Shown one piece after another: positions 29,691 to 64,000 of a stretch of 64,000 nucleotides of DNA. The first letter of the stretch is position 1. Each line of letters opens with the position of its first letter. Source of the DNA: Escherichia coli (GTDB lineage Bacteria > Pseudomonadota > Gammaproteobacteria > Enterobacterales > Enterobacteriaceae); the NCBI RefSeq assembly GCF_036507355.1, contig NZ_AP027877.1; one strand, given 5' to 3'. A model generated the notes under the pieces. It did not search any database and was not told the origin of the DNA. It saw only the letters and a list, made by a program, of their open reading frames with translations. A program made the position numbers and the translations under genes.

Positions 29691-30026
29691 GGAAAAGCCG
29701 AAGGGCGTCAACCGAAAAATGACCAATGATGGTGAGGAAAAATCAGGGAAGATGAATTTTCTTCATCTGTATATGGGAGTAGATAGGTTCTCTCGCATTA
29801 TCGCGTCGTGAAGTAATGAATAAATGCTTAAGCCATCGGCTGGAAATTTATTTAAATAAGAGTTAATTAATATTCACGACGGTGTTAGCTGAACACTTAT
29901 TTAAATAAAACAAATAGATACCATAATTTGCATTCATTACTGCATGTTTATTATTTGAACTACTTCAAACTATTAATAATTTTTCAAAAATTATGTTGCA
30001 GAGCAATTATGTATCCCCCACGATAA

Positions 30027-30054
30027 GTAGAACGTTCTACTAGAACGTTCTACT
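30027..30054. promoter_or_regulatory. tandem palindromic operator candidates GTAGAACGTTCTAC x2
   Basis: Two adjacent copies of a 14-bp palindrome with central AACGTT (LacI-family operator style) about 55-80 bp upstream of the PTS gene; coordinates +/-1. Confidence 0.6.
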
Positions 30055-30108
30055 TATACAAAAAAGACTAATTCGCGCAGCTTTATGCGCTATTCGGGGG
30101 AAATCAGC

Positions 30109-31434
30109 ATGAGTCTGATGTCGAGTTTCGTGAAGTCACTTTCTAAATTATCGATGATTGGTCGCGCCCTAATGCTACCAATTTCGCTTCTGCCTGCCGC
30201 GGGGTTGTTACTCGCGTTCGGCGATAAATTCCATTTGCCGTTGATGATGAATGCGGGCGGCATTATTTTTGATAACTTGCCGATGCTTTTTGCTATCGGT
30301 TCCGCCGTAGGGCTGGCTTCTGAATCGGGAATTGCGGCGTTATCCGCAGCCGTTTCCGTTTTTGTCACCAATATCACCATCAGCACCGTACTTAGCATTA
30401 CGCCAGAAATGGCCGGGCAAGGCGGCAAATACGCGATGGTGGTGGGGATCCCAACACTGCAAATGGGCGTTTTTGGCGGCCTGATATGCGGGATTCTGGC
30501 GGCGTGGTGTTACAACCGTTTTCATACAATGCAATTGCCAGAATTCCTTGGTTTTTTCTCCGGAAAACGCTTTGTGGCTATCGCGACGGCTTTTCTCTCC
30601 TTCATTCTTGGCTTGTCACTGCCTTATGTCTGGCAACACATTCAGTCAGGAATCGATGCGTTATCGGTTATCGTTAATGGTAACAACCAGGCAGCATCAA
30701 CCTTTATTTTTGGTGTAACTGAACGGGCGCTCATTCCGCTTGGCCTGCACCACATCTGGTATCCATCGTTTTGGTATTCTTTTGGGGATTACACTACCCA
30801 TGCCGGGCAAATGATTCACGGCGATCAGACGATTTGGTTCAAGATGTTGGAAGAAGGGGTGAAATCATTTAGCAGCGACAGTTATCATGACGCTGGTAAA
30901 TTTATGCAAGGTGAATTCCCACTGATGCTGTTTGCCCTGCCTGCGGCGTGCCTGGCGATGTATCTGCTGCATGCACATATTGCCAAATCCTTCTCTGCGG
31001 GGCTTATTGACTATATTTCGTTTGGTATCCTGCCATCCTTTAATGGCTACGAAACCAACTTCCTGAGCGCCATTATCGTCGGCGTGCCAATGGCGGTGAT
31101 CTACTACTTCACCTTCCGCTTTGTTATTCGTCGTTTTGATGTAAAAACGCCTGGTCGCACCGAAACTACGGTTAGCGCTAATGATAAATCCGATGACGAG
31201 CTGGCAACAGAAATCATCACGCTGCTTGGCGGTCAGCAAAACGTTAAATCGGTAGGTTCCTGCATCACGCGTTTACGTCTGGAAGTCTCTGATAAAGAAG
31301 CGGTGGATCAGGATGGTCTGAATAATATTGGCGCCCGTGGCGTGGTTTTTGTCGGCGATAACGGCATTCAGGTAATTTTTGGCGCGCGAGCGCAATTTAT
31401 CGCGCAAACCATGTCGACGATGATCGGTAAATAG
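30109..31434 (+). CDS. PTS EIICB component, glucose/maltose family
   Basis: EIIC domain with FGVTERALIPLGLHHIWY motif and C-terminal EIIB with CITRLR phosphocysteine motif; start at internal ATG with GGGGGA SD (track ORF starts 30085). Confidence 0.85.
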   Translation: MSLMSSFVKSLSKLSMIGRALMLPISLLPAAGLLLAFGDKFHLPLMMNAGGIIFDNLPMLFAIGSAVGLASESGIAALSAAVSVFVTNITISTVLSITPEMAGQGGKYAMVVGIPTLQMGVFGGLICGILAAWCYNRFHTMQLPEFLGFFSGKRFVAIATAFLSFILGLSLPYVWQHIQSGIDALSVIVNGNNQAASTFIFGVTERALIPLGLHHIWYPSFWYSFGDYTTHAGQMIHGDQTIWFKMLEEGVKSFSSDSYHDAGKFMQGEFPLMLFALPAACLAMYLLHAHIAKSFSAGLIDYISFGILPSFNGYETNFLSAIIVGVPMAVIYYFTFRFVIRRFDVKTPGRTETTVSANDKSDDELATEIITLLGGQQNVKSVGSCITRLRLEVSDKEAVDQDGLNNIGARGVVFVGDNGIQVIFGARAQFIAQTMSTMIGK

Positions 31435-31515
31435 CCTTAAGATTACTCGATGTCAGAGGTTCTGGTCCCTGACCAGAACCTTCTTGCTATTTAAAGAATC
31501 AACGTTGTTCAGGGA

Positions 31516-32538
31516 GTGAGTTTGAAGAAAGTCAGCATAATTGATGTTGCTAAAAGAGCCGGAGTTTCCGTCTCTACCGTGTCGCTAGTGCTGCGCCAGA
31601 AAGGGAAAATCTCAGAGGCGACCATCGGGAAAGTTCATGCTGCTATTGACGAACTGGGCTACGTGCATAATGTTGCCGCCGCCAATTTACGTTCCCACAC
31701 TTCAAATCTTATCGGACTGATTTTACGTGATTTTAGCGATAGCTTTTCCATCAAAGTGATGGCTAGCATTGTTCAGGAACTGGAAGCCAAGGGCTATATG
31801 GTATTCCTTGGGCAACCACAGAACGAACATGAACATCTTGAACGTTGTTTACTTTCCTTCAAGCAACAAGGTGTTGCCGGAGTGATTTATCTGGCTTCCG
31901 ATGCGCATCGTGAAACCCTACCCACACTAATCCGCCAGTGTTCGCTTCCCCTTGTCGTCGCGTCACAAACGCCCATCAAAGATGAGTGCAACCTGGTGTT
32001 GCGTGACAACCAGCAGGCAGCAAGCCTTGCCACACGTTATTTAATTGAGCGCGGCCATCGTTACATTGCCTATCTCGGTGGCAGAGAAAGCGATCTTATC
32101 CGTCAGCAGCGACTGGTTGGTTTTCGCCAGACCCTGGCAAAATTTGGCATTGCCTGCCGTGACGAGTTCACGCCAGCCTGTGACGATGACACCTGGGCCG
32201 CCAGCATGGCAACGCGCCAGTTGCTGGAAAATAACAACGCCATTACCGCCCTGCTCTGCCATTCGCCCGACGCTATGATTGGCGGTATCAACGGCATACA
32301 TCAGGTGGGGCGCACCGTTGGGAAAGACGTCTTTCTGACCCAGCAGGTAGCATTAATTGGTTTTGAAGATATGTTGCATATCAACCTGACCTCTCCTGTT
32401 TTCACCTATGTATCTTCCGCCAGTGAAGAAACCGGACGCCAGGCAGCGACCCTGATGATTCGCAAATTAAAAGACCAGGAATTGCAAACCCAAAGAATTG
32501 CGCTTTCCGGGGAACTGGTGGTGCGGGAATCGGCGTAA
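31516..32538 (+). CDS. LacI-family transcriptional regulator (MalI-like)
   Basis: N-terminal HTH DVAKRAGVSVSTVSLVL and periplasmic-binding-protein-like effector domain; GTG/TTG start. Confidence 0.85.
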   Translation: MSLKKVSIIDVAKRAGVSVSTVSLVLRQKGKISEATIGKVHAAIDELGYVHNVAAANLRSHTSNLIGLILRDFSDSFSIKVMASIVQELEAKGYMVFLGQPQNEHEHLERCLLSFKQQGVAGVIYLASDAHRETLPTLIRQCSLPLVVASQTPIKDECNLVLRDNQQAASLATRYLIERGHRYIAYLGGRESDLIRQQRLVGFRQTLAKFGIACRDEFTPACDDDTWAASMATRQLLENNNAITALLCHSPDAMIGGINGIHQVGRTVGKDVFLTQQVALIGFEDMLHINLTSPVFTYVSSASEETGRQAATLMIRKLKDQELQTQRIALSGELVVRESA

Positions 32539-32611
32539 TACACATGCCGAATGAGATGTACGTCGACATCGTCATCCGGCAATAAGGTGTAAACCAACTC
32601 AATAACTACTT

Positions 32612-33124
32612 TTATTTGATATCTTTCACGCGCATACCGTTGAGCTGTTCATCCGTGATGGCGTTACCCGCTTTGAAGTAATCAACCACGGCGTGATAAA
32701 CGTAATAACCGCCCGTTGTGTTGCGCGCTTTCCCCTCGATAAATGCGGTAAAGCCATCACCGCCATCAGCAAGGAAACTCTGAGTAGCAATATGGTAAAC
32801 CGTCGCATCTTCAATCGGTTTGCCATTTAGAGTCAACGTGATTACGCGCTGACCAACCGGCTTACTGCTGTCGTACTTCATTTCCAGGCCTTTCGATACC
32901 TGTAAAACGCCATTACTTAAACTTGCGCCGTGTTCCATCAAACTGCGTAATTGTTTCCCCGAGAGATCCATCGTCACCAGTTCGTTGGGGAACGGGAAGG
33001 TACTGATGACGCCGCCCATCGTAATCGCCCCTGCGGGGATCTCATTGCTAATACCGCCAGAGTTGGTTAACGCCAATTGGGTATTTTTACCCGCCGCTAC
33101 CAATAAAACCGTTAGATGGTATGT
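32612..33124 (-). pseudogene. 3' remnant of a 5'-nucleotidase / cyclic-nucleotide phosphodiesterase (C-terminal domain only)
   Basis: Open frame covers only a C-terminal substrate-binding-like domain; in-frame stop immediately upstream, no metallophosphatase domain. Confidence 0.55.
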
Positions 33125-33279
33125 TCATTAACGGGCGGAAATAGCAACAAAGCCAAAATACTCTCTTTAGCAACCAGCAGAGAATTTATCTACTGGCTAC
33201 ATAAACAGGCAGAATTTACTCACAGCGCCCCGCTTTCCGCAGGGCGCGTTACGCAAATACTGCTTTCTCTGGCCCAGGA

Positions 33280-57257: not shown

Positions 57258-58247
57258 TCAGCGTTTGCTGATCTGATCGAACGTACCGCCGTTAGCAAAA
57301 TGCTCTTTTTGCGCTTTCGTCCAGCCGCCGAACTCTTCATCAATGGTGAATAACTTCAGCTTTGGAAACGCATTTTCGTACTTTTTCGCCACCTCAGCGT
57401 CGCGCGGACGGTAGTAGTTTTTCGCGGCAATTTCCTGACCTTCTGGCGAGTAGAGATATTTCAGGTAGGCTTCCGCCACCTCTTTAGTACCTTTTTTCTC
57501 GACCACTTTATCGACCACCGACACGGTTGGCTCTGCGAGGATAGACTCACTCGGCGTGACAATTTCGAATTTATCTTTCCCCAGTTCATTCGCTGCCAGT
57601 AGAGCTTCGTTTTCCCAGGCGATCAGTACATCGCCAATTCCGCGCTCGACAAAAGTGTTAGTGGAGCCGCGCGCGCCAGAATCCAGAACTTCGACGTTTT
57701 TATACAGTGCCCGAACAAAATCCTGTGCTTTTGCCTGATCGTTGTTGTTGTGATGCAGCGCGTAGCCCCAGGCAGCCAGGTAATTCCAGCGCGCGCCACC
57801 AGAGCTTTTCGGATTAGGCGTGATCACCGAAACACCCGGTTTAATCAGATCGTTCCAGTCATGGATCTGCTTCGGATTTCCCTTACGTACCAGGAAAACA
57901 ATGGTGGAAGTGTACGGTGCGGAGTTATCCGGCAGACGTTTGATCCACTCTTTATCAATCCGCCCGCGTTCCGCAATCGCGTCCACGTCATAGGCCAGAG
58001 CCAGCGTGACAACATCAGCTTCAATACCGTTGATTACCGACGTTGCTTGTTTGCCTGAACCACCGTGTGACTGACGAATCACCACGTTATCGCCAGTTTG
58101 CTGTTTCCAGTGGGCGCTGAATGCCTTGTTGTACTGTTCGTACAATTCGCGCGTTGGATCATATGAAACGTTAAGAAGCTGAATATCCTTTGCCATAACG
58201 CTGGTTGCCGCCAGCAAAAATGTTAACCCTACGCCCCACTTGTTCAT
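57258..58247 (-). CDS. sbp: sulfate-binding periplasmic protein
   Basis: 329-aa ORF with signal peptide. Confidence 0.9.
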
Positions 58248-58404
58248 CGCCCGACTCTCTTATGTTGTGTTGTGATGAGCAAAGCGTGCCAGAAGGTTAA
58301 CCAAACATTAAAGAATAAAAAAAGATTGGCTATAACTTGCGGGTATATGTTGGGGGTTAAAAAGGCGGAAGAAATCCGCCTCATATTGCTGACAAAGTGC
58401 GCTT

Positions 58405-58520
58405 TATCGATGCCGGATGAGGCGCGAACGCCTTATCCGGCCTACAAAAGTTTGTAAATTCAATAAATTGCAGAATTCACGTAGGCCTGATAAGCGAAGC
58501 GCATCAGGCATTTTTGCTTC
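58405..58520. repeat. REP palindromic elements
   Basis: GATGCCGGATGAGGCGCGAACGCCTTATCCGGCCTAC and GTAGGCCTGATAAGCGAAGCGCATCAGGC. Confidence 0.8.
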
Positions 58521-58565
58521 TGTCATCGGTTTCAGGCTAAAGGAATCTGCCTTTTTCCGAAATCA

Positions 58566-59528
58566 TTAATACAGTTTTTTCGCGCAGTCCAGCCAGTCGC
58601 CTTTGAACGGACGCTTCATGTTTTCGATAGCGTCGATGATGTCGTGGTGAACCAGCTGTTCGTTCTGGATACCTACGCAACGACCGCCGTAACCTGCCAG
58701 CAGCAGATCGATAGCGTAAGCGCCCATACGGGAAGCCAGAATACGGTCGTAAGGCACCGGAGAACCACCGCGCTGGATGTGGCCCAGCACAGTTGCGCGG
58801 GTTTCACGACCGGTTTCTTTCTCGATGAAATGCGCCAGTTCGTCAACATCACACATATGTTCGGTAATCGCCACGATCGCGTGTTTTTTACCTTTCGCGA
58901 TACCCGCTTTGATTTCGTTTACCAGGTCTTCACGGCTGAATTCAACTTCCGGAACCACAACGAATTCACAGCCACCAGCAATGGCCGCAGCCAACGTCAG
59001 ATCGCCACAATAACGGCCCATCACTTCCACCACGGAAATACGCTGGTGAGAAGAAGAGGTGTCACGCAGACGGTCGATCGCTTCTACAACGGTGCTCAGC
59101 GCAGTGAAGAAACCGATAGTGTAGTCAGTGCCTTTGATGTCGTTGTCAATAGTGCCCGGCAGGCCGATGCACGGGAAGCCCATTTCGGTCAGACGCATTG
59201 CACCCATGTAGGAACCGTCACCGCCGATAACCACCAGCGCATCGATCCCACGTTTTTTCAGGTTTTCGATAGCCACGGCGCGGATGTTCTCGTCGCGGAA
59301 TTCCGGGAAACGCGCAGAACCGAGGAACGTACCGCCACGGTTGATCATGTCAGAAACGCTGTAACGGTCTAGCTGTACCATACGGTCTTCATACAGACCC
59401 AGATAGCCGTCATAAATGCCCATTACTTCCAGACCTTCTGTCAGCGCAGAACGAACAACCCCGCGAATTGCGGCGTTCATGCCTGGCGCATCACCGCCGC
59501 TTGTCAACACACCGATTTTCTTAATCAT
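58566..59528 (-). CDS. pfkA: 6-phosphofructokinase I
   Basis: 320 aa from [23 protein letters not shown]. Confidence 0.95.
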
Positions 59529-59708
59529 GACTACCTCTGAACTTTGGAATGCAAAATGAAATCTGTTGCCGGAAGTCTTCTTGCACATCGAAGTGATCCA
59601 ACGAATGTGCAAATAGTATAACAATCACTTCCTGCTGAATTGATTCAGGTCAGGCCAAATGGCGGTATTTTATACACAAAATGCGGGTCTGGCTCTCTTT
59701 TATACTGA

Positions 59709-60611
59709 TTATGAAAGCATAGACCGTTTACCCTCCCTGGGTACGACGGAACAGGGGTCCTGGTGGATAATCACATCCGATCCCGGAAAACGCCGTAAAA
59801 TAGCCTGCTCTACCTGATCCGCCACCATATGTGCCTGAACCAAAGGCAGAGAGTCTTCCATTTCCAAATGAATCTGAATAAAGCGGGTCGGCCCTGACTG
59901 CCGCGTGCGAAGATCGTGAGCGCCGCTAACACCCGGCCAGGAAGTCACGATATCAATAATTTCTTGCCGTTCCTCATCAGGCAATGCGCGATCCAGTAAT
60001 GACTGTACCGCCTCATATCCCATGCGTAACGCGCTATATAAAATATAGATGCCGATTCCCAATGCAAACAGAGCATCGGCGCGATGCCAGCCGTACCAGG
60101 ACAACCCCAGCGCCAGCAGAATTGCGCCGTTCATCATAACATCAGACTGGTAATGTAGCATATCAGCCCGCACCGCCTGGCTTTGCGTCCGGCGCACCAC
60201 CCAACGCTGAAACGAGACAAGTATAATCGTACAAATTAGCGCCACAATTGTCACGATAACCCCGACGCCTGGATCTGTCATCGGTGTTGGAGATATCAGA
60301 TGTTGAATACCCGTCAAAAACAGGAATAGTGCTGAACCGGAGATAAACATACTTTGCGCCAGCGCCGCGAGGGACTCAGCTTTACCGTGACCAAACGAGT
60401 GATTATCGTCGGCAGGTTGCAGGGAATATCGCACCACCAGTAAATTCGTCAACGACGCGCCGATATCCACCAGCGAATCCACCAGCGCGGCGAGAATACT
60501 CACCGACCCGGTATACCACCATGCAAAAATTTTAATCAGCAATAGCAGCGAAGCCATCGCCGTCGCAGCAATCGCCGCCCGACTGACCAGCCGTCCATAA
60601 GATTGATTCAT
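59709..60611 (-). CDS. fieF: cation diffusion facilitator (Zn/Fe efflux)
   Basis: 300 aa from MNQSYGRLV; CDF family. Confidence 0.9.
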
Positions 60612-60692
60612 AAATACTCCCGCTATCAACTGACGCTAGTATAACGGAAGCAAATCATCTGCAATGCATTAAGCAGCAGGCAAATTGAGGAT

Positions 60693-60719
60693 AAAAAAAA
60701 CCCCCACATCATGTGGGGG
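60693..60719 (-). terminator. rho-independent terminator (minus strand)
   Basis: Hairpin CCCCCACAT C ATGTGGGGG with A8 on plus strand (T8 on minus strand), about 100 bp downstream of the 170-aa ORF. Confidence 0.75.
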
Positions 60720-60818
60720 AAGACAGGGATGGTGTCACAAAAAAGCACCTAACCTGATGATATAAATGGATTTATGTCAACCGCTGTCCACATAGCGTCC
60801 ACATCGTTCAGCGTCCGT

Positions 60819-61331
60819 TTAATCGGACGCTTTTAAATTTTTATTTTTCCCAGCAGAAAAATTAGCTTTCCCGCTGTTTTGCAACTCAACAAGAGGAGAT
60901 AACCGTCGGTAAACAGCCAAAAGTATCTTTAACTGAACCAGTTCATCTGCCCCCGATAGTTGAACCAAGTTTTTACGTTGTTCTTCACTAAGTGCCATCA
61001 CAGATTCAAGTGATTTAACTGCGTCAGAAACAAGTTCAATCTCTTTAATTTGATTCTGTATACGCAGCTTCTCTGATTTCAACTTTGCCCATTCTCTTTG
61101 TCGATATGTACGCATCACCTGATCGTAAACTTTGTTGGCAGCCAGAATACTTCCACCAACAGCAGTAACTAACTCAGCAATCTGCCAAGAGATATCAATA
61201 AGAGCAGACAATTCAATAAAGCCAGGAGAGGCATACTGAATTTTTTTCACTACAGGACGTAAATCTGGTGGAGTCGCACTGTAAGCCCCTCTAAAAAAGT
61301 TCACCACACTGTGCCCACCCTCCCAAGGCAT
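60819..61331 (-). CDS. hypothetical protein (170 aa; predicted coiled-coil C-terminal half, no signal peptide)
   Basis: AT-rich ORF with AGAGGA SD 9 nt upstream of ATG; own terminator; IS lies about 35 bp upstream of start. Confidence 0.6.
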   Translation of the reverse strand: MPWEGGHSVVNFFRGAYSATPPDLRPVVKKIQYASPGFIELSALIDISWQIAELVTAVGGSILAANKVYDQVMRTYRQREWAKLKSEKLRIQNQIKEIELVSDAVKSLESVMALSEEQRKNLVQLSGADELVQLKILLAVYRRLSPLVELQNSGKANFSAGKNKNLKASD

Positions 61332-61365
61332 TGTTGAATATCCTCTTGATCCTCCTTTTAGGCGC

Positions 61366-62431
61366 TGAATTTACAATCCAAGTGCAACAAAAAAAGAAGT
61401 ACTCATCAACTAGAATATAATTTTGTTTCCACACAAAAACCACTTCCAAATGATGAGTACTTCCTACCGACATCTTACAATAAACGAGCGAGAAAAGATA
61501 ATGATTTTACTCGCACAGGGCAAAAAACAAGCAGAAATTGCCAAAGCACTGGGACGTAGCTCCAGCACCATTTCTCGCGAGCTGAAACGACACGCTCTAG
61601 AAAGCTACAGTGCAACGAACGCACAAAACAGCTATTTGAAGCATCGTCAAAATAGCAAAGCACAGCGCAAATTAGAGCAGCCTGAATATTTCAATTTGGT
61701 GCAAGAAAAGTTTCTGACAGAAAACTGGTCGCCCGAACAAATCAGCGCACGATTAAAATTGGAAAAATCTGAATTATCCATTAGTTATTCAACCATTTAT
61801 CGTGGTATTTATTCAGGGTTGTTTGATATAGGCGAACGCAAAGCCAGTCGCAAACTGCGCCACAAAGGCAAAACACGGCATACAAAAAATCATCATGAAA
61901 AACGTGGCAAAATTCAGATATCCAACCATTTGAACGACCGTCCCATTTCGGCGCAAAATCGCAGTCGCTTTGGACATTGGGAAGCCGATACCGTACTGGG
62001 TAAAGCGGGTGGAGCTTGTTTGCTGACGCTGACGGAACGCAAAAGTCGTTTTGAGTTGGTGAAGAAAATTCCTGCCAAAAAAGCCGAAGCAGTCCAAAAA
62101 GCCATGATTGAATTGCTGGATTCACATATATTGCGGTCAATTACGCCAGACCGTGGTAAAGAATTTGCCCAACATCGTTTGGTAACAGAAGCACTGGGTG
62201 TAGAATTTTACTTCCCCGAGCCGCATCAACCGTGGACACGGGGAACGAATGAAAATACAAATGGGTTACTTCGTGAATACTTTCCGAAGCACCAAGACAT
62301 CAATCAGTGGAGCGAAGTTGATATTCAACAGGTGATCAATAAACTGAATTTACGACCACGTAAATGTTTAGGTTGGAAAACACCTTATGAAGTTTACTTC
62401 AAAAAATCGTTGCACTTGGTTTGACAATTCA
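61366..62431 (+). mobile_element. IS30-family insertion sequence (about 1.07 kb; ISApl1-like by size)
   Basis: Imperfect terminal inverted repeats TGAATTTACAATCCAAGTGCAAC (left) and GTTGCACTTGGTTTGACAATTCA (right) flanking a single transposase ORF; boundaries +/-3 bp. Confidence 0.75.
61423..62424 (+). CDS. IS30-family DDE transposase
   Basis: N-terminal HTH (TINEREKIMILLAQGKKQAEIAKALGRSSSTISRELKRH), GHWEADTV and NENTNGLLR motifs; first codon of track ORF is TTG, true start probably internal. Confidence 0.85.
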   Translation: MFPHKNHFQMMSTSYRHLTINEREKIMILLAQGKKQAEIAKALGRSSSTISRELKRHALESYSATNAQNSYLKHRQNSKAQRKLEQPEYFNLVQEKFLTENWSPEQISARLKLEKSELSISYSTIYRGIYSGLFDIGERKASRKLRHKGKTRHTKNHHEKRGKIQISNHLNDRPISAQNRSRFGHWEADTVLGKAGGACLLTLTERKSRFELVKKIPAKKAEAVQKAMIELLDSHILRSITPDRGKEFAQHRLVTEALGVEFYFPEPHQPWTRGTNENTNGLLREYFPKHQDINQWSEVDIQQVINKLNLRPRKCLGWKTPYEVYFKKSLHLV

Positions 62432-62433
62432 AG

Positions 62434-62532
62434 GCCATAAAAAAAACCATATAGCTGCAAATACTCTTTCGTTAAGACCGCGAAATCAGCTAACTCCCAA
62501 CGATTATCAAGCTCAATTATAACTTTTTCCAT
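62434..62532 (-). other. short ORF (33 codons, MEKVIIELDNRWELADF...) with GGTGG SD that runs into the IS right end; possible truncated gene 5' end
   Basis: ATG at 62532 on minus strand, open until the IS boundary. Confidence 0.3.
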
Positions 62533-62636
62533 TTTCCACCAACCTGTCCAACTTTAAAGATTGACTTTTAAGTATATGATAAACATAGTTTATTAAACGT
62601 GATCCACTACTTTTAATGAAGAATATTCCCCAAAAC

Positions 62637-62663
62637 AGAAAGCCCCTCGACTGAGGGGCTTTC
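62637..62663. terminator. bidirectional hairpin terminator
   Basis: AAAGCCCCTC GACT GAGGGGCTTT with T-rich flanks on both strands. Confidence 0.6.
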
Positions 62664-62672
62664 TGTTTGTAA

Positions 62673-62771
62673 TTACATCCACATAATTTGCTGCCCTGAC
62701 GGCAACGGGTGCGGTCTTACGGCGTGGACTTCTCCCGGCTTGTCCAGGGTAATGACATTTTCTTTGTTCAT
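62673..62771 (-). CDS. small ORF (32 aa, MNKENVITLDKPGEVHAVRPHPLPSGQQIMWM)
   Basis: ATG start, ends just before the hairpin terminator; no recognisable homology. Confidence 0.25.
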   Translation of the reverse strand: MNKENVITLDKPGEVHAVRPHPLPSGQQIMWM

Positions 62772-62931
62772 GGTTTTCTCACTTCTGAATCAGGGTTAAC
62801 CGGCCAGCCAGGCTGACCGGATGAAAATCACAGGCCGATATTGCGGCGGTGTTGCTCCAGCCGGTCGACGCCGTTCACCTTCTCAATCATGTTGATGGTG
62901 TCAATTTCGACCAGCTCCTTACCGTCCATCG

Positions 62932-63138
62932 TCAGCCGGAAATAACCCATTTTTCACCGGCACGAGCCTTCGGTTTGCAAGGATCACGCAATTCAATAAT
63001 TGGTAATTTATTTGCCTTCACCATTTCACTGACGGCTGTCTTTGGCTTCCCTAATAAATCAGCAAATTTATCCACATGAACCGCATCAAGCGGATACTGA
63101 ATCACATAATTTTCAGCGTCCATATATGGTACCCTCAT
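62932..63138 (-). CDS. excisionase-like / small winged-helix DNA-binding protein (putative Xis)
   Basis: 68-aa ORF divergent from the HTH-integrase pair; FADLLGKPKTAVSEMVKANKLPIIEL segment resembles excisionase-type winged helix; family assignment tentative. Confidence 0.45.
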   Translation of the reverse strand: MRVPYMDAENYVIQYPLDAVHVDKFADLLGKPKTAVSEMVKANKLPIIELRDPCKPKARAGEKWVISG

Positions 63139-63198
63139 AGGATCCAGCCCTTTCTAAACCACTCAAAACCGTTTAGACGCTGGTTTATTCTCAAATCA

Positions 63199-63250
63199 AT
63201 GGAACCTATATAGGTTCCAGTTTTGAGGGAATTTAGTCCCTATATAGGCA
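63199..63250. promoter_or_regulatory. operator-like palindromes (CCTATATAGG core, two copies) in divergent promoter region
   Basis: GGAACCTATATAGGTTCC perfect 18-bp palindrome (63201-63218) and CCCTATATAGG (63238-63248), plus degenerate CCCTCATAGG at 63132-63141 overlapping the xis-like start codon. Confidence 0.6.
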
Positions 63251-63259
63251 CCATGTCAA

Positions 63260-63553
63260 ATGAAATTAAGCGAAAAGATTAAGGCCTTGCGTGAGGCTGA
63301 AGGGCTAAGCCAATCAAAATTCTGTGAAATCATAGAGTTACCGCTAAGCACACTTAAAAAATATGAAGGAGGAAACTTTGAACCCGGTGGCACAGCTTTG
63401 CTAAAAATCACTATGCATCCCACATTCCAAAAATATGCTCTATGGCTTATGACAGATAAAACCGCGCCGGACGCAGGACAAATCGCACCGGCTCTCGCGC
63501 ACATTGGGCCAGAGTCAACAGAGTCCAACCACTCCGAGAAAAGGATTGGATAA
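63260..63553 (+). CDS. XRE-family (Cro/CI-type) HTH transcriptional regulator
   Basis: 97 aa; LSEKIKALREAEGLSQSKFCEIIELPLSTLKKYE is a typical Cro/C1 HTH. Confidence 0.75.
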   Translation: MKLSEKIKALREAEGLSQSKFCEIIELPLSTLKKYEGGNFEPGGTALLKITMHPTFQKYALWLMTDKTAPDAGQIAPALAHIGPESTESNHSEKRIG

Positions 63554-63622
63554 CTCTATATAAAGATTACATTTTCACCATTTGCTACCAAGATGGTGAA
63601 TACAGCGCCGGAGGGCTTTCTT

Positions 63623-64000
63623 ATGGCAATTAAGAAGCTCGATGATGGTCGCTATGAAGTGGACATTAGACCTCGCGGTCGCGACGGAAAACGCATCCGC
63701 AGGAAATTCGAAAGAAAAGCTGAAGCACTAGCATTTGAGCGATACACAATCGCCAATGCCAGTCAGAAAGAATGGGGAGGCCAGCGAGCAGACCGCCGGA
63801 CTTTGAGTGAGTTGCTGGACATCTGGTGGAAATATCACGGGCAAAACCACGAGCATGGAACAAAAGAGTTTAATCATCTACTCAAAACCATCAGCGGCAT
63901 AGGTGATATACCAGTGAACAGGATGAGCAAAAGGGCTTTGATGGATTATCGTTCCATGCGACTACGTGATGGTATCAGTGCCGCAACGATAAACCGTGAC
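63623..64000 (+). CDS. tyrosine-type site-specific integrase, N-terminal part (truncated by window end)
   Basis: GGAGGG SD 8 nt upstream; 126 codons open to window end; MAIKKLDDGRYEVDIRPRGRDGKRIRRKFERKAEALAFE is a typical arm-type DNA-binding N-terminus; not in the ORF track because there is no stop in the window. Confidence 0.75.
   Translation, partial: MAIKKLDDGRYEVDIRPRGRDGKRIRRKFERKAEALAFERYTIANASQKEWGGQRADRRTLSELLDIWWKYHGQNHEHGTKEFNHLLKTISGIGDIPVNRMSKRALMDYRSMRLRDGISAATINRD

Follow-up and report, generated by a model that had tools for sequence, protein, structure and literature searches.

The genome paper of E. coli W lists "cpxP-fieF: Wphi1 (P2)" among its prophage insertion sites, and also gives rybB and cyaR as P2-type sites (PMC3032704). 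The integration site of phage WΦ had been identified earlier, and phage L-413C shares its core; arm-type integrase-binding sites of P2-type phages follow the consensus tgTGGaCa (PMC3448106). On the host side, the 3'UTR of cpxP consists almost entirely of CpxQ, an Hfq-dependent small RNA of ~60 nt that RNase E cuts free close to the stop codon (PMC9438474), and for nhaB and cfa the seed is located at the 5' end of CpxQ (PMC6755755).

In this study we analysed a stretch of E. coli DNA of 64,000 nucleotides (the window) in which foreign DNA stands beside fieF, in the place where the 3' end of cpxP would be expected. In our judgement it is very probable that a WΦ-type prophage integrated at the cpxP terminator, leaving the host hairpin orphaned at fieF, and that the prophage later decayed.

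The terminator beside fieF and the attachment core

The backbone gene adjoining the junction is fieF (59709..60611, minus strand), which is unchanged. About 80 bp upstream of its start at 60611, a position taken by annotation transfer, a terminator scan found a minus-strand hairpin at 60719..60701 (60701..60719 on the plus-strand numbering), CCCCCACA-TGA-TGTGGGGG, with 8 pairs, 6 of them G-C, and a 3-nt loop, followed at 60693..60700 by a U-tract of eight T (T8) that is identical in K-12. The hairpin lies exactly 100 bp 3' of the stop of a 170-aa ORF on the same strand (ORF end 60819). The initial annotation had described this arrangement from the letters of the window, and both the sequence and the scan bear it out. 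The RNA fold of the hairpin has an energy of -14.3 kcal/mol (z = -2.74), which was equalled by 2 of 200 shuffled sequences. In the region 58000-64000 the generic terminator pattern was found 7 times, against 6.9 expected, and is thus not enriched, so that a match to the pattern says little by itself about whether a site is a terminator.

Conservation is more telling. K-12 has the hairpin and T8 at an equal distance from fieF, the sole difference being one base of the loop (60709 on the plus strand, T in the window and G in K-12), and the K-12 U-tract ends 67 nt past the cpxP stop. The backbone block flanking the hairpin was matched in 5,425 of 5,426 complete E. coli genomes. A chance hairpin was considered and rejected, given that the site is conserved across genomes; judged by this conservation, the site is real. 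A GC-rich stem-loop, a U-tract and a co-oriented unit upstream, the sequence features of an intrinsic terminator, are all present, and on these features the hairpin with its T8 is the predicted intrinsic terminator of E. coli cpxP. The suggestion that the hairpin is the one that ends cpxP in K-12 is upheld by this comparison, and the opposite outcome, that K-12 might have no hairpin at this position, is not what the alignment gave.

K-12 aligned to the window over 60500-60736 at 99.6%, and there the identity stops, at 60736/60737, within the interval 60720-60819 in which the initial annotation had placed the junction. In K-12 the end of identity lies 23 nt downstream of the cpxP stop codon. 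The last 47 bp before the break (60690..60736), GATAAAAAAAACCCCCACATCATGTGGGGGAAGACAGGGATGGTGTC, form an attachment core (O) that is common to the host attB, the WΦ attP and both prophage junctions: it is identical at 47 of 47 positions to the WΦ attP (2501-2547 of the WΦ extract) and likewise to the cpxP-side copies of PSS-08-1, ETEC6333, E423, M217, Sanji, CFS3273, J31 and KOL-1. When K-12 attB, WΦ attP, the window junction and the PSS-08-1 cpxP-side junction were aligned, the four sequences took the forms B-O-B', P-O-P', B-O-P' and P-O-B'. To the left of the core the window is K-12, and to the right it is the WΦ arm at 98%; the PSS-08-1 cpxP-side junction has the reverse layout, with phage on the one side and host on the other.

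The phage sequence that follows the core, at 60737..60806, is the ogr-proximal attP arm, 98-100% identical to WΦ, L-413C, R18C and related phages. Taken together with the core, 60690-60806 matches the attP regions of WΦ, Yersinia phage L-413C, R18C and ~60 other Peduovirus records at 98-100%, and in WΦ the matching attP segment is located between int and ogr. The arm has two direct TGTGGAC repeats on the minus strand (60803-60797 and 60792-60786) which match the P2-type arm-site consensus and are predicted arm-type Int-binding sites, and the att alignment has two further TGTGGAC repeats on the int-proximal arm. Between the core and the arm repeats lies a sequence resembling the IHF consensus with 1 mismatch, WATCAANNNNTTR (60750..60762, minus strand), which is a weak pattern match only.

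A core shared with attP, host and phage sequence on its two flanks, arm repeats and a cognate tyrosine integrase were thus all found, as in a B-O-P' junction. In the genome of Ecol_224, which is identical across the junction, a full P2-like prophage lies to the right of fieF (a hypothetical gene, ogrK, gpD and tail genes). From these sequence comparisons, the junction in the window is the ogr-proximal junction of a WΦ-type P2-like prophage, or attR by lambda naming. The sequence specific to this fieF-side junction is GGUGCUUUUUUGU-GACACC, and the junction is found in 786-789 complete E. coli genomes (~790, about 14.5%), and the int-side junction was matched in 530. Many lysogens have full-size prophages, with 16-38 kb between the junctions.

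The position of cpxP and the prophage remnant

Neither cpxP nor cpxR sequence was found within the 64-kb window, where the core is single-copy. In PSS-08-1, the gene order is fieF, core, 213-aa gene, ogr fragment, C repressor, integrase, core, cpxP, cpxR and cpxA, and the 47 bp form a perfect direct repeat, with the second copy after int and immediately before an intact cpxP. ETEC6333 and E423, which have differently decayed prophages at the same site, also have a second core copy after int and before an intact cpxP, and cpxP comes right after int in both. Over its last 877 bp, which take in the C repressor and the first 126 int codons, the window is 99.9% identical to PSS-08-1, and it ends inside int, ~0.8 kb before the expected cpxP. 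By the PSS-08-1 register, the second core would be expected at about 64720-64766, with the cpxP stop following at about 64790, and we infer that cpxP follows int in the window's own genome as well.

These arrangements bear directly on the proposal, made in the initial annotation, that foreign DNA replaced the cpxP coding sequence by deletion or replacement and that only the terminator survived. A window without cpxP or cpxR, in which 23 nt would separate the start of the foreign DNA from the expected cpxP stop codon, is compatible with this proposal, but the foreign DNA opens with the attP arm exactly at the edge of the core shared with the WΦ attP, and the window stops within int before cpxP would be reached. 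All of the relatives examined keep an intact cpxP after int and the second core copy, in the order cpxP-cpxR-cpxA, and 5,425 of the 5,426 complete E. coli genomes have cpxP once, among them all of those with the fieF-side phage junction. We regard replacement as extremely improbable and conclude that cpxP was very probably moved beyond the window by insertion of the prophage. In practice, the absence of cpxP beside fieF is a signature of a WΦ-type prophage or its remnant and not of gene loss, and cpxP should be sought after the phage int.

The remnant occupies ~4 kb of the window, which is cut inside int. Directly after the attP arm comes a cargo module that is absent from WΦ (60807-62632) and carries a gene for a protein of 213 aa. 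The 3' part of this gene (60819..61363, minus strand; PD-T4-10_B-like by ORF and comparison) is separated from its 5' part (62434..62532, minus strand, start codon 62532) by a copy of ISApl1 (IS30 family) of ~1,070 bp at 61364..62433 on the plus strand, with GC at both edges and a transposase ORF at 61423/61450-62424. When the IS was removed in silico, an ORF identical to the PSS-08-1 protein WP_000416606 was restored. What had been taken for a gene of 170 aa (60819-61331) is therefore the 3' part of the prophage's 213-aa cargo gene, truncated by the IS, and its ORF begins at an internal ATG. ISApl1 is known for mobilising mcr-1. E423 also has ISApl1, with one copy abutting the att core on its fieF side, precisely at the position that corresponds to 60689/60690, and another interrupting the replication gene of the prophage.

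The 213-aa cargo protein had no match in Pfam or PHROGs. It matched the PADLOC profile PD-T4-10_B (E = 1.3e-34), the alignment taking in ~200 positions at the C-terminal end of the profile. The abortive-infection system to which PD-T4-10B belongs is TA-like and has this protein as its toxin, and the two P2 defence hotspots mentioned with it lie elsewhere in the P2 genome (PMC9519451). The cargo gene sits between the attP arm and ogr, a position that is empty in WΦ, and there is no room for the partner A gene in the 100 bp upstream of it. At the 3' end of the module is a hairpin, absent from WΦ, with the cargo stop in its loop and a T-rich tail on the plus strand only (60810..60831, plus strand); it folds at -14.5 kcal/mol (z = -5.2). 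In the excised circular phage this hairpin would be downstream of int across attP and may terminate int transcripts.

Beyond the cargo module, a hairpin at 62633..62668 corresponds to the bidirectional terminator that stands after the attP arm and ogr in WΦ. It is followed by a 3'-terminal fragment of ogr consisting of its last 69 nt (62673..62741, minus strand), the rest of the gene being deleted, and by a 210-bp fragment (62735..62944, minus strand) with the start of a gpE-type tail assembly gene and the end of the tail tube gene, which lies between two deletions. Next come a truncated cox (62932..63138, minus strand; Pfam Phage_Cox, E = 1e-13), a P2 C-type immunity repressor (HTH_3; 63260..63553, plus strand) and the first 126 codons of a WΦ-type tyrosine integrase (63623..64000, plus strand; Int_N, E = 1e-17). 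The full-length Int of PSS-08-1 is 98% identical to WΦ Int. The two deletions that shaped the remnant run from the 5' part of ogr to gpE and from the tube gene to the 3' end of cox. No genome in the collection covers at least 80% of 61200-64000, so exactly this remnant was not encountered elsewhere in it. Other forms at the site include the 2.7-kb remnant of PSS-08-1, that of ETEC6333, which retains tail genes, and the forms of 16-38 kb, and this variety indicates repeated independent decay.

Three other segments of the window differ from K-12. Between metL and metF, ~3.5 kb that are absent from K-12 (29757-33278) contain ORFs for a PTS EIICB-like permease (449 aa), a LacI-type regulator (340 aa) and a 163-aa product. 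Between rraA and zapB, ~1.5 kb that are absent from K-12 (46701-48228) contain two ORFs (228 and 238 aa) that are paralogues of each other and have hydrophobic N-terminal parts. Positions 1-1505 have no match to the K-12 sthA-fabR neighbourhood and include a 388-aa ORF on the minus strand (129-1295) which, judged by eye, looks like an M20-family amidohydrolase.

Origin of the two terminator copies

That the fieF-side hairpin is derived from the backbone, as first proposed, agrees with its being contiguous with the fieF backbone and with a polymorphism of the loop base. The proposal holds as to the side on which the host copy lies, but the hairpin is not exclusive to the backbone, since the phage attP has an identical copy. 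In K-12-type backgrounds the loop position 60709 is G, and in the phage attP it is T. Both the window's fieF-side hairpin and the phage copy have the T allele and are indistinguishable by sequence, and a direct reading of origin is impossible here.

The two copies can be compared in lysogens of the G type. E423 has G in its fieF-side copy and T in its cpxP-side copy, and all five further G-type lysogens have T at the cpxP side, so that all six inspected are G(fieF)/T(cpxP), although these strains are for the most part related, and the number of integration events behind them may be small. With G in the loop, a synthetic fieF-side junction was matched at 100% in at least 60 genomes. A synthetic cpxP-side junction with G had no 100% match among complete E. 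coli genomes, where a cpxP-side G combined with another arm variant would escape the 100% criterion. The G(fieF)/T(cpxP) lysogens indicate that the phage supplies the new terminator of cpxP while the host's original stays at fieF. From the alleles of the six lysogens, strand exchange would take place on the cpxP-proximal side of the loop base, in an interval of 27 bp (60710..60736).

In the reverse case, the hairpin at fieF would be the phage copy, the exchange would have occurred on the fieF side and cpxP would have kept the host terminator. The attP hairpin is identical and the two origins look the same in the window, which leaves room for such a reading; against it, all six of the K-12-type-background lysogens that were checked have G at fieF and T at cpxP, and the reverse junction occurs at 100% in no genome. 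We consider it highly unlikely and, on the basis of the mechanism, infer that the fieF-side hairpin of this window is host-derived.

In the mechanism that we propose, a WΦ-type tyrosine integrase would recombine attP with the last 47 bp of the cpxP 3'UTR (60690-60736), and the prophage would thereby be placed between cpxP and cpxP's own terminator. The phage copy of the core would complete cpxP/CpxQ at the int-proximal end, beyond the window, and the host's original terminator would be left orphaned at fieF and joined to the phage arm. The prophage would then have decayed to ~4 kb through two internal deletions, and ISApl1 would have inserted into its cargo gene at some time after integration.

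The orphan hairpin most probably terminates minus-strand prophage transcripts and would shield fieF from them. Because the cargo hairpin has its T-tail on the plus strand only, with the stop codon in the loop, cargo transcripts would run on for 100 nt and end at the orphan hairpin. In this window few transcripts are expected to get that far, since ogr is deleted and ISApl1 lies between the cargo promoter and most of the gene.

CpxQ and comparison with known systems

The 58 nt that end at the U-tract of the K-12 locus (extract 2611-2554) presumably represent CpxQ, given their agreement with the published sequence; its exact 5' end is reportedly that of Chao and Vogel in 2016. Counted from this 5' end, the att core would correspond to about nt 15-58 of CpxQ plus 3 nt. 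The window retains only the 3' ~44 nt of CpxQ, comprising the hairpin, the U-tail and the preceding 17 nt, and these are the native 3' end except for the K-12 loop base. This copy has no cpxP upstream, no RNase E site and none of approximately the first 14 nt, which include the 5' seed; the phage arm stands there instead. Since the seed and the processing site are missing, the orphan copy is not a CpxQ gene. Compared with CpxQ, the window copy is alike in its terminator and U-tail (the predicted Hfq-binding 3' module), whereas the sequence upstream is phage-derived. The functional CpxQ of lysogens, in turn, is a composite of host and phage, with a sequence that is unchanged except for the loop base in K-12-type hosts. 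The published cpxP-fieF att site is thus the 3' two-thirds of CpxQ, and the working CpxQ terminator of lysogens is supplied by the phage.

Rfam scans of the window and of the K-12 locus found no CpxQ family. They did return Hrs1 (RF02628), on the plus strand, antisense to cpxP, at 60693-60759 of the window and 2554-2626 of the K-12 locus extract, with 31.8 and 41.4 bits against a gathering score of 56.4. The Hrs1 consensus opens with A7 and a hairpin, the reverse complement of a terminator, and the family has the look of a CpxQ homologue that was modelled on the other strand. As a test of CpxQ membership we rejected Hrs1, the matches being both sub-threshold and antisense. Rfam matches to Ms_IGR-7, mir-513 and Phe_leader, which fell on the end of ISApl1 and on the hairpin of the ogr terminator, were put down to chance or to hairpin structure and dismissed.

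It is conceivable that the orphan 44-nt fragment of CpxQ is active, in that read-through from the prophage (ogr or cargo) would yield a chimeric Hfq-binding RNA with a phage 5' part. The fragment keeps the hairpin, the U-tail and the single-stranded stretch before them, the cargo hairpin is without a minus-strand U-tract, so that cargo transcripts probably continue for 100 nt and end at the orphan terminator, and about 14.5% of complete genomes have the junction. By competition for Hfq or by regulation of targets, such an RNA might act outside Cpx control. It would, however, be missing the CpxQ 5' seed and the RNase E site, and in the window, where ogr is lost and ISApl1 stands between the cargo promoter and the terminator, little of it would be made. 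The arrangement is also fully explained as a by-product of integration, and we think an active fragment unlikely. We are similarly doubtful of the wider idea that a truncated CpxQ yields a chimeric RNA in ~1/7 of genomes and that the P2-type sites rybB, cyaR and cpxP-fieF are all terminators of Hfq-dependent sRNAs; if it were true, P2-type integrases would target terminators of the Hfq-sRNA class.

CpxQ is said to have been described in 2016, later than the papers on the cpxP-fieF site. In a limited literature search we found no link between CpxQ and the WΦ site. The site and the phage family are already known and the junction is an ordinary one; the overlap with CpxQ and the interval of the exchange point are small additions to that knowledge.

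In its chromosomal site and core, the prophage resembles WΦ (Peduovirus Wphi), Wphi1 of E. coli W and L-413C. Unlike WΦ, what is present in the window is a remnant of ~4 kb with a different C/cox immunity region (cox-C-int has ~78% DNA identity), with an additional gene, the cargo gene, between the attP arm and ogr, and with ISApl1. As in the P2-type prophages at cyaR and rybB, the core overlaps the 3' end of a small RNA and the phage copy restores the gene (PMC3032704), and overlap of the core followed by restoration from the phage copy is also found in 186, Fels-2 and SopEΦ at the 3' ends of tRNA and tmRNA genes (PMC3448106). In contrast to the cyaR, rybB and tRNA cases, the target at cpxP is the 3' end of an sRNA that is derived from an mRNA, and it was listed as intergenic before CpxQ.
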